64,000 nt of DNA, from positions 7,445 to 71,444 of the forward strand of contig CANRNX010000002.1 of assembly GCA_947632075.1 (NCBI GenBank), written 5' to 3'. This document shows, in pieces, positions 42,001 to 45,000 of the stretch. The DNA is from an uncultured Flavobacterium sp. Its GTDB lineage: Bacteria > Bacteroidota > Bacteroidia > Flavobacteriales > Flavobacteriaceae. Made by a program: the position numbers. The first letter of the stretch is position 1. Each line of letters opens with the position of its first letter.

Positions 42001-45000
42001 AGAAAAAGAAAAGCACGTTGAAGAAAAATTGAAAGAAATTGAATTTCATAAAGCGAACTTTCATGAAGCACAAACAAGATTAAAGCAATCTGAAAAAGAT
42101 TTGAAAGAACTTAGACAATTTACTTTTGAAGATTGGAAATTAAAACAAGCACAAACATCAATGGTAGAAATTGAAGGTTTTGAAAATTAATCGCCAACCA
42201 AATGGTGGGCGAATAAATAAAAATATCGTAGCAGATGTGCCACGATAAAAAACAAAAAAATATTTCTCGTTATCTCCAAATGGAGATAACGAGATGTTGA
42301 ATTACCCCCAAATGGGGTAAATTGAAATAACTGAAAAGCCAGTTAATTGAGATTTAAAAAAAAACATTTGCATTTATAATTTTTATTTCTACATTTGTAG
42401 AGCACAAATTACCCTAAGGAAACAATCCTTTTAAAAAAATACATTTTTAACGATATCGAAACCCTCGTTATGGTGATGGAGATGGAAACTACTCCTAAAT
42501 CTTACCTTTTGGTAATTTGTGCACACCTAATACGGGGGATTCGTGTATTTAATATTTTCGATATGCACAAAGGAAATTTAAACAAAATGTTACCAAACGA
42601 GCTGTTTGGTTTATTTACAAACACTATTGTTGATGAAGCATTTGGCGTACACGATGTACGTTTAACCAGCAACGATTTAGATGCTATGTTTTATTATTGT
42701 TTAGGAAGTGATGAGTTTGAAGCTATCCAACGCCAAACCATGATTGCGAGTTATTTTAGCATGAAGCGAACTTTAGAAGCTTTGGCTAAAAAGTGTTTTC
42801 CTGAGAGTACAGATATTGTAGTTAAGGACCCGTATTTTAAATAATATTCAACTATTTTATTTTACAAACAATTATCAATTGCATTTTGTAATTGAGATAG
42901 TTCCCGATATTGATATTACAATTTACAGTTATATTTTTTTTTCTTTTTTTTTAAAACCACCTTAACGGGTGGTTTTTTTGTTAAATTTTTGTAAGTTTGA
43001 AAGAAACAAAAAAAAATAAATTTTATTATTTATTTAATAATTACGTTTATATAATGTACTATATTTGTTCCATAAACTATTACATAATATAATGTTTAAA
43101 CCAATTTCTGAAACACACTCTGTAAGCAAAATCGTTGCTAATATTTTTAGTCCTCAATATATGATTAAAGCTGAAGACGTATTTATGCAACTTAATAACA
43201 AATTTCAAAGATATCAAAGAAGAGGATTAACTTCTTCAAATACAATAAATTTGGAAAATGATACATTTGCTATTTCAAATGATGGGAACACAGGTTTTAT
43301 TTTTGAGAAATTTAACACTCAAGGAAAAAGTATTAATCTTTTCAAAGTTGAAAATATACCTGGTAAAAACAAGACACAAATTATTTTTGAGTCAAAGGAA
43401 TATACAAATTGGTCAAATTTTATTACAGATTTCATAAATGACTTAAATGAATTTATTAGTATAAATAATATTTATGTAGAAGCAATTTCTCTAAATTTTA
43501 TTGATGAATTTATTTGGGAATCTAATGAAAAAATTCCTGTAGAACAAATTTTTAATAATAGTTCAGATTTATTAAATACAACCTTTTTAAATTCTCATAA
43601 TGGAACTTTAGTTTTTATTTCACAGTCTGAAAGAAAATCAAATCAAAAGTTTTATGAAGAGAAAACAGAATTATTATTCAATAATGATATAAAAAGAGTT
43701 GTTATTAATCACATTTATGCAATACAGTTAGAAGAAATTAAAAAAGTTAGTAACGACCTTATAATAGAATTATTTGAAACAGCACATTCTAAAAATAAAG
43801 ATTTGTTACAAGCAATATTAACGAAACATATTAAAAGTAGTATAAATTTAAAATAATATAATTATTTTAAAAAAATAAAAACTTATGTTAATAACAACAA
43901 CATTATTATTTGCTTCTTTATCTCCTGATGTGAGAAGAAATAGTTATATTGAATCATTAACAAATGAACCTTCTTATAAAGTAGAACGATCAGTTAATCT
44001 AAACTCAGTAAAAGAAAGTCTTTATTTATTTGATTCTGAAAGCACTAGACTTAATAATTTAATAGAAAATATCAAGGTAGCAAACGTTAGTAATGAAGTT
44101 TTAAATAATTCCATTAACATTTTAAAAAATTTACCTTCTTTATTTTTATCAAATTTTAATGAGGAAAATTTATATAGTTCGTCTTACGGAACTATTGTAT
44201 TAGAATTTTACAAAGCTGACAACTCTATATTTACTATTGATATAGGAAAAAAATCTTTTGGTTATTTTAGTGAGTCTAATAATAACATAAAGCATCTAGA
44301 AGAAGACATGTCTTTTTCAACAGATGAAAATCAAAGAAAAAATTCAATTAAAATACTTATTCAAGATTTCTTGGATTTTTATGTAACAGAATAATTATGG
44401 CTTTTATTCCTCTTCAATTTGAAGATAATGAATTACTGATAAGGTTTATATTCACAGATCATTTTAAAAAAAAGAATGTTAATGATACTAAAATTTTAGA
44501 ACAAGAGGTCTTTTTATATTCTGAACGGTATGGAGTTTCATTACAAAGAGAACATTATACAAACGAACAATTTTGTAAAAATATAGCTAGAAACATTCCT
44601 TCTAAATCATATGCTGGATTTGTATTATTTACTAAAAAAGATTTCCTTGAAGTAATTCAAGATTTTTTAAAAGTTAGATCTAATTTTGATGCAAAACTAG
44701 AATTTTCACCTTTGTCTGAAAAAGATGCTTGTCATGCTAATAGAAAGACAGTGTGTATAAATTGTAAAGAAAATCCATCACATTGTGATATATTTTATTT
44801 GAATCCAGGTTTAGAATCTCATGAATCTAATCCAAAAATTCCTTTAAGAATTTTTTCTAGAGAATTATTTAAAAGGTCAAAATTAATCATTGATAAAAAT
44901 CCTAATGATAATGAATATTGTGAACCATTATTTAAATCGTTAATATAACCACTCCTAACCGAGTGGTTTTTTTGTGTCCTTTTATTAGCGTTTAAAACCT

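Follow-up and report, generated by a model that had tools for sequence, protein, structure and literature searches.

We examined a three-gene cassette in a 64,000-nucleotide (nt) stretch of genomic DNA from an uncultured Flavobacterium sp. (contig CANRNX010000002.1 of assembly GCA_947632075.1; this whole stretch is hereafter called the window), where the cassette interrupts the virion genes of a prophage. We favor the reading, to which we give a probability of roughly 60%, that the cassette is a three-part toxin-antitoxin (TA)-like module in which gene 3 encodes the toxin, gene 2 its neutralizer, and gene 1, a member of the TIGR04255 family, an accessory protein. Such a module would probably serve in phage exclusion or prophage maintenance.

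Constant linkage of three genes across Flavobacteriales

All three genes lie on the + strand and form the tight operon described in an initial annotation of the window: gene 1 (43092..43856, 254 amino acids) is separated by 28 nt from gene 2 (43885..44394, 169 amino acids), which is followed after 2 nt by gene 3 (44397..44948, 183 amino acids). The start of gene 1, placed at a TTG codon at 43065 in that annotation, was moved to the likelier ATG at 43092 (MFKPIS...) because homologs start with MF[KT]PIS. By composition, the cassette is foreign and probably horizontally acquired: it was correctly described as AT-rich, with a G+C content (GC) of 0.20-0.26 over positions 42800-45000 compared with 0.30-0.39 on either side (0.23 for the triad and 0.337 for its flanks).

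The same triad (~256, ~168, and ~184 amino acids, in constant order, with gaps of -32 to +28 nt) occurs at unrelated sites in many Flavobacteriales, including Empedobacter stercoris, Capnocytophaga stomatis, Epilithonimonas zeae, metagenome contigs, and two Logan contigs. Every gene 3-family locus that could be inspected contained the same three genes in the same order, an arrangement that holds even for gene 3 relatives at only ~29-35% identity. Triad proteins are 40-59% identical across genera, with all three reading frames intact, and wherever flanks could be measured the GC of the triad was below that of its flanks (by 3-13 points, mostly 8-12). A seemingly solitary gene 3 (locus L001) was rejected as an exception: the contig has been truncated at an adapter, and the C-terminus of a gene 2-like protein is encoded in its first 236 nt. 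Members of the gene 3 family are rare (in 3 of 401 sampled Bacteroidota genomes, the window's own included).

In Empedobacter stercoris (locus L004, 5001-9232), the triad adjoins an NgoFVII-type restriction enzyme and a C5 DNA methylase, and a relaxase/NikA/primase block lies just upstream. Because of this adjoining block, the setting looks like a defense island on a mobilizable element.

Gene 3 has a remote likeness to ADP-ribosyltransferase toxins

Gene 3 belongs to a family for which an exhaustive HMMER search recovered 87 representatives, most of them ~180 amino acids long; a word-indexed database returned only two close relatives. The R...S-x-x-R...NPxH pattern first noticed by eye is real and family-wide, with S48, R51, and H129 invariant in 73 sequences and a further eight residues at least 90% conserved (E12, R16, C60, G74, P105, P127, D131, and Y134). 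No Pfam or PDB sequence match was found for the family, and none in NCBIfam, PHROGs, or PADLOC for gene 3. Member-wise Pfam scans of the gene 2 and gene 3 families gave single chance matches only, PDB sequence searches for all three genes (with single sequences and with profiles) gave nothing below E 0.04, and fold and feature searches of the Atlas returned unnamed clusters only.

The AlphaFold2 model of gene 3, built with the family alignment, was of high confidence (predicted local distance difference test [pLDDT] 95.4, predicted template modeling score [pTM] 0.90). An exhaustive VIA-align search with this model covered 48,161 chains, and its best 25 rows were ADP-ribosyltransferase (ART)-superfamily or ART-like proteins throughout. 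The closest solved structure was Tse2 (Z 6.3, 111 residues aligned, root mean square deviation [rmsd] 3.4 Å), followed by an ADP-ribose-bound enzyme (Z 6.1), Tpt1 (5.2), Scabin (4.8), TreX (4.8), and DarT (4.7). Also in these rows were AvrPphF ORF2, PltA, CC0527, VPA0770, Tne2, TreTu (Z 3.8), heat-labile enterotoxin, pertussis toxin, SdeA, protein 6b, CopC, and a diphtheria-toxin homolog, among which we take AvrPphF ORF2, 6b, CC0527, and Tne2 to be ART-like. The hit list also included ParT (Z 2.9). In a second structural look, Tse2 (Z 6.1) was set well apart from the row below it (Z 3.5). The model therefore resembles ART-superfamily toxins more than any other solved fold, and it appears, at modest Z-scores that are all below 8, to contain the split β-sheet core of the ART fold.

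Several of the conserved residues fall on predicted strands. R16 (44442..44444, +) lies on strand β1 (residues 13-19), S48-L-Q-R51 (44538..44549, +) on β2 (residues 47-51), and P127-S-H129-C-D131-I-F-Y134 (44775..44798, +) at the start of β5 (residues 129-136). Judged from strand order rather than from superposition, R16, S48, and H129-x-D131 would correspond to the R, S, and [QE]-x-E of R-S-E enzymes.

Gene 2 is predicted to bind gene 3

Gene 2 encodes an acidic, two-part protein resembling an antitoxin or adaptor. Among close relatives, identity is 0.64-0.71 over residues 1-20 (43885..43944, +), which form a hydrophobic N-terminal tag (MLITTTLLFASLS...), 0.27-0.36 over the linker (residues 21-70), and 0.49-0.84 over residues 71-130 (44095..44274, +), a conserved C-terminal domain that is predicted to provide the surface for binding gene 3. 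The tag may be a docking or stability element for gene 1. Another role for the N-terminus, as a membrane anchor or signal peptide, was set aside, the hydrophobic run being ~13 residues long and absent in distant relatives. Gene 2 had no match in Pfam, NCBIfam, PHROGs, or PADLOC scans. All 19 of its relatives are acidic (isoelectric point [pI] 4.2-5.1), and the median pI of the gene 3 family is 7.6.

Modeled together, gene 2 and gene 3 reached an interaction prediction score from aligned errors (ipSAE) of 0.87 in three runs, whereas the highest value among three controls was 0.01; the runs agreed in at least 92% of their contacts, and partner pLDDT was at least 73. Of 80 solved complexes, 58 reached the mark applied to such complex models, as did 2 of 110 mismatched pairs, counts that are rough since our own alignments were used. 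The predicted interface places residues 68-72 and 94-141 of gene 2 against residues 24-41, 93-94, and 137-155 of gene 3, the last of these stretches including a family-conserved R-x-F-S-x-x-L helix. Gene 2 was initially assigned as the antitoxin, and it behaves like a cognate neutralizer, being acidic, covarying with gene 3, and predicted to bind it. The pair would thus show, in silico, the direct antitoxin-toxin binding of type II-like TA systems.

Gene 1 has a predicted TBP-like fold, and its family heads operons with other toxins

Gene 1 matched the NCBIfam hidden Markov model of TIGR04255, the family it had been said to resemble, with 44.1 bits (cut-off 30) over profile positions 85-251, and a homolog with 48% identity (L002) matched with 47.1 bits over positions 4-251. 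Its model (36 family members in the alignment; pLDDT 93.0, pTM 0.89) consists of two β-sheet-plus-helix halves, and in both structural searches the TATA-binding protein (TBP) ranked first (E 4.3e-4 and probability 0.99 in Foldseek, Z 7.9 in VIA), ahead of AdoMetDC, Med18/20, and the C-terminal domain of phosphoglucomutase. In place of the SecB-like fold expected for gene 1 in the initial annotation, the model thus has a duplicated TBP-like fold. By sequence, gene 1 matched neither a SecB nor a CmdC model when compared with Pfam, NCBIfam, and PADLOC, and no SecB chain was among its structural matches, absence from that list not being proof. What survives of the proposed chaperone or sensor is a third, accessory component, without the SecB-like identity.

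TIGR04255 is more widespread than the gene 3 family, occurring in 25 of the 401 sampled Bacteroidota genomes, eight times the count of gene 3. Its operons could be scored at 23 loci, and at every one of these it is the first gene of a compact operon in which two or three further small genes follow on the same strand. Three of these (L022, L025, and L029) continue with a gene of 78-104 amino acids and end with a PemK/MazF toxin (E 8.5e-15, 4.1e-13, and 2.6e-12), which implies that the last place in TIGR04255 operons is a toxin position. Other operons end in a DUF7689 protein (for example L026, 2644-3069, E 4e-36) or in a weakly HEPN-like protein; DUF7689, a Pfam family of unassigned function, may be another partner in the toxin position. 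A possible TIGR04255 fusion (L028, 273-2222), with the domain C-terminal in a frame of ~650 amino acids on a short contig, was set aside, as its N-terminal part contains no Pfam domain; the frame may be a fusion or may just be over-long.

Gene 2-like proteins stand behind many distant TIGR04255 genes and are always followed by a short protein with the motif order of gene 3 (h-R-h, F-x-P, [ST]-[VI], P-x-x-H-x-x-I). An unbiased gene 2 profile search found matches in 20 of the 401 genomes, and all 11 strong matches adjoin TIGR04255. Weaker matches (L065-L074) lie in three-gene operons with a first gene of 117-223 amino acids (e.g., L067, 500-1814; L069, 1043-2396; L073, 695-2342). These first genes were rejected as TIGR04255 relatives (hhalign probability below 1%). 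At least one such operon nevertheless ends in a gene 3-like gene (the third gene of L067, probability 76%), and the antitoxin-toxin pair can apparently be combined with first genes of other kinds. Given this operon survey, we regard gene 2 and gene 3 as a cognate pair and TIGR04255 as a promiscuous third partner of several TA-type pairs.

The TBP-like fold raises another possibility for gene 1, namely that it is not a chaperone or sensor but a DNA-binding autoregulator, acting through a TBP-like saddle, of what is otherwise an ordinary two-gene TA pair (compare omega-epsilon-zeta and paaR2-paaA2-parE2). Its best structural match is consistent with this, as is its invariable first place in the operon, and a separate regulator would be sensible given that a member-wise Pfam scan of the gene 2 family found no recognizable DNA-binding domain. 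However, the TIGR04255 family is acidic (median pI 5.5, 92% below 7), whereas the DNA saddle of TBP is basic, which argues weakly against such a saddle in gene 1; moreover, many proteins that share the TBP-like fold do not bind DNA, among them AdoMetDC, Med18/20, and the phosphoglucomutase C-terminal domain. We consider the autoregulator rather unlikely, if the best placed of the alternatives.

A proposed mechanism and its alternatives

In the favored TA-like module, a temperate phage would carry the three genes as horizontally acquired accessory cargo. Gene 3 would be the effector, a small ART-superfamily-like enzyme with an unusual conserved set (R16, S48, R51, H129, and D131), and the C-terminal domain of gene 2 would dock on its helix 147-155 and loop 24-41. 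Gene 1, as an acidic accessory protein common to MazF-type and other toxin pairs, may hold or stabilize gene 2 by way of the hydrophobic N-terminal tag. An infecting phage, or loss of the prophage, could then break this hold and free gene 3, and the outcome in a lysogen would be either an abortive-infection-type exclusion of other phages or prophage addiction. A bolder version combines several of these steps: TIGR04255 would be a new class of TBP-fold TA partner in the role of a SecB chaperone, gripping a terminal tag of the antitoxin until released by a competing phage protein and serving many interchangeable toxins, while gene 3 would found a new clade of ART-fold toxins that uses His in place of the classical Glu, the whole excluding rival phages. 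We advance this combined version only tentatively.

Several results weigh against the TA-like reading. The Z-scores of the gene 3 model (6.3 at most, all below 8) are under the level that the tool takes as clearly above background, and they therefore indicate a remote ART-like fold and are not proof of homology; Foldseek found no match for the model in PDB or BFVD at E ≤ 0.001. Gene 3 also has neither canonical triad (R-S-E or H-Y-[EDQ]), the catalytic Glu of canonical ARTs being absent, and this is the respect in which the initial call of an ART-fold toxin falls short. Shorter relatives keep only R, S/T, and H, that is, His alone of H129-x-D131, so that NAD-dependent chemistry is uncertain. 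The confidently predicted contacts of gene 2 exclude the conserved motif residues of gene 3 and leave the mode of neutralization unexplained. Gene 1 is not indispensable to the pair, because some gene 2/gene 3-like pairs have unrelated first genes. Finally, in the proposed check against PADLOC (PADLOC-DB v2), none of the three proteins matched a model, even with E values of up to 1 allowed.

A phage location also suits a counter-defense or host-takeover module, in which gene 3 would be an NAD or ADP-ribose enzyme that benefits the phage by modifying a host or rival-phage target, and genes 1 and 2 would be regulators or specificity factors instead of parts of an antitoxin system. Phage host-modifying enzymes also use the ART-like fold, Tpt1-like folds rank near the top of the gene 3 structural list, and in related phages the same slot holds an orphan Dam methylase, a kind of gene typically used against restriction. 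The triad, however, is mostly chromosomal and found outside phages, in one case next to a restriction-modification system. TIGR04255 also heads operons ending in classic MazF toxins, and an acidic partner with tight binding in silico suits a neutralizer. On balance we judge counter-defense unlikely.

The cassette was initially likened to CmdTAC, an anti-phage system of the SecB-type toxin-antitoxin-chaperone (TAC) class (PMC11618068; bioRxiv 10.1101/2024.02.24.581848), whose toxin CmdT belongs to the diphtheria-toxin ART family with an H-Y-[E,D,Q] triad (PMC11618068). The two share several features: three small co-transcribed genes in a modular, mobile format, a third protein common to different TA pairs, an antitoxin that looks labile and has an additional conserved hydrophobic element, and an ART-like fold (that of CmdT and, as modeled, of gene 3). 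The components nonetheless differ. The third component here is a 254-amino acid, duplicated TBP-like TIGR04255 protein encoded first, whereas that of TAC systems is a SecB homolog encoded last. The TAC antitoxin carries a C-terminal chaperone-addiction (ChAD) extension and a ClpXP tag such as LAA, whereas gene 2 ends ...DFYVTE and lacks both; its hydrophobic element, which may play a ChAD-like part, is N-terminal. In gene 3 the conserved residues are R/S/R/H/D, in R...S...H order, rather than the H-Y-[EDQ] that defines CmdT. Since, in addition, no PADLOC model matches, the likeness to CmdTAC is one of logic, an analogy only, and true membership in the SecB-type TAC systems is very improbable. 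It is equally hard to credit that the cassette is inert hitch-hiking DNA, as the lack of a known function for any of the three families might suggest, given that the frames are intact and 40-59% identical across genera, that certain polar residues never vary, that the genes are tightly coupled, and that the folds are predicted with confidence.

Relation to other toxin modules

Among solved structures the closest counterpart of gene 3 is Tse2 of the Tse2-Tsi2 pair of Pseudomonas aeruginosa (PDB 5AKO; 111-113 residues aligned, rmsd 3.4-3.6 Å), which has an ART-like fold with non-canonical residues, as gene 3 is modeled to have. A review (PMC6099711, on Robb 2016) places Tse2, a toxin acting in the cytoplasm, among NAD-dependent ADP-ribosylating toxins and describes Tsi2 as neutralizing Tse2, binding it through an acidic patch and occluding its active site. 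Unlike gene 3, Tse2 is a secreted type VI effector in a two-gene effector-immunity pair with no TIGR04255 partner; it has no detectable sequence similarity to gene 3, and Tsi2 is unrelated to gene 2 by sequence. ART-fold toxins checked by a cognate protein are also found in DarT-DarG, in ParT-ParS, and in the Rhs toxins TreX and TreTu with their immunity proteins. These differ in being two-component systems with other catalytic motifs and no sequence relation to gene 3, and in place of gene 2 they have a macrodomain antitoxin, in the case of DarG, or immunity proteins that are unrelated. The TIGR04255-PemK/MazF operons, for which we found no publication, share with the cassette the first family, the tight three-gene format, and the toxin in last place, and differ in combining a 78-104-amino acid middle gene with a MazF-type RNase instead of gene 2 with an ART-like protein.

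Three-part TA modules are thus known in kind, and the components found here are apparently unpublished. Our literature search found no paper containing TIGR04255 and none linking a TBP-like protein with antitoxins; a broader search returned general TA reviews only, and a paper on HicA (PMC10865869) describes no TIGR04255-type partner. If the favored reading is true, TIGR04255 (~6% of sampled Bacteroidota genomes) can for the first time be placed in a functional context, that of a third component common to a large family of mix-and-match toxin modules, and TAC logic, so far tied to SecB-like chaperones, arose at least twice with unrelated folds. With the gene 3 family, the ART-like toxins would likewise gain a member whose catalytic residues are unusual. 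Few defense systems have been studied in Flavobacteriia, and the phage-borne copy offers a practical case in which to examine prophage-encoded exclusion there.

Cassette boundaries and phage context

Terminator-like hairpins lie at both ends of the cassette, to which one terminator had been assigned in the initial annotation. The left hairpin (42953..42976, +; a 10-pair stem followed by a T run) ends an antirepressor/c4-RNA module and marks the left edge of the cargo slot; the right one (44947..44968, +; an 8-pair stem followed by a T run) overlaps the stop codon of gene 3 and marks the right edge of the cassette. The cassette region contains six terminator-like sites, compared with 0.9 ± 1.1 in shuffled sequence. 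A Bacteroidota-type -7 box, TAAGTTTG (42992..42999, +), had been annotated as the cassette's own promoter. It is present, but it belongs to the upstream module: positions 42944-42998 are 95% identical to 58135-58189, and the left terminator and box both belong to the 3' end of a module of ~1.45 kb that is present twice in the window. The box is retained in both copies, with different cargo behind each. Because the homology stops at ~42999, the foreign cassette starts directly after the conserved module end, and the box is a plausible candidate read-out promoter for any cargo that follows rather than one owned by the cassette. The TAnnTTTG motif was rejected as promoter evidence, as it occurs in the window no more often than by chance (98 observed vs 114.6 expected). 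Positions 44938-44992 are 62% identical, ungapped, to 42944-42998 and share an AACCAC...GTGGTTTTTTTGT hairpin design, and the two similar hairpins bracketing the cassette may be a footprint of its insertion.

As initially annotated, the cassette interrupts virion genes. The head genes (37734-49736) are split by the cargo slot, with an S49 prohead protease (37734-39101) and a capsid-like gene upstream and the large terminase and portal genes downstream. The nearest phage relatives of the terminase infect Polaribacter, Flavobacterium, and Cellulophaga. Five related viral contigs have the flanking genes in the same order, and none of the five contains the triad; in related phages the slot holds an orphan Dam-type methylase (L049), an IS21 element (L052), or an amidase with unknown genes (L051). 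Because relatives with the same flanks hold other cargo, this place among the head genes is best described as a variable hotspot, and the cassette as accessory cargo within it.

Also upstream of the cassette are a P22-type antirepressor (41651-42190) and a c4-2-like RNA (42461-42541, +), the latter with an Rfam score of 33.6 bits that is below the gathering score of 41 (E 1.8e-4). The RNA match overlaps the start of an open reading frame (ORF) of 124 amino acids (42470-42844). The second copy of the antirepressor/c4 module (56798-58189) has the same terminator and box at its end and is followed (58205-59341) by a 234-amino acid protein with a C-terminal BRCT domain (E 1.8e-11) and a 115-amino acid orphan, both just ahead of the tape-measure gene (59345-62245). 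This stretch seems to be another cargo slot, built on the same plan. Elsewhere in the window, three tandem copies of a 162-nt unit (52200-52598; 72-83% identity) lie within an ORF of 708 amino acids (51582-53708).

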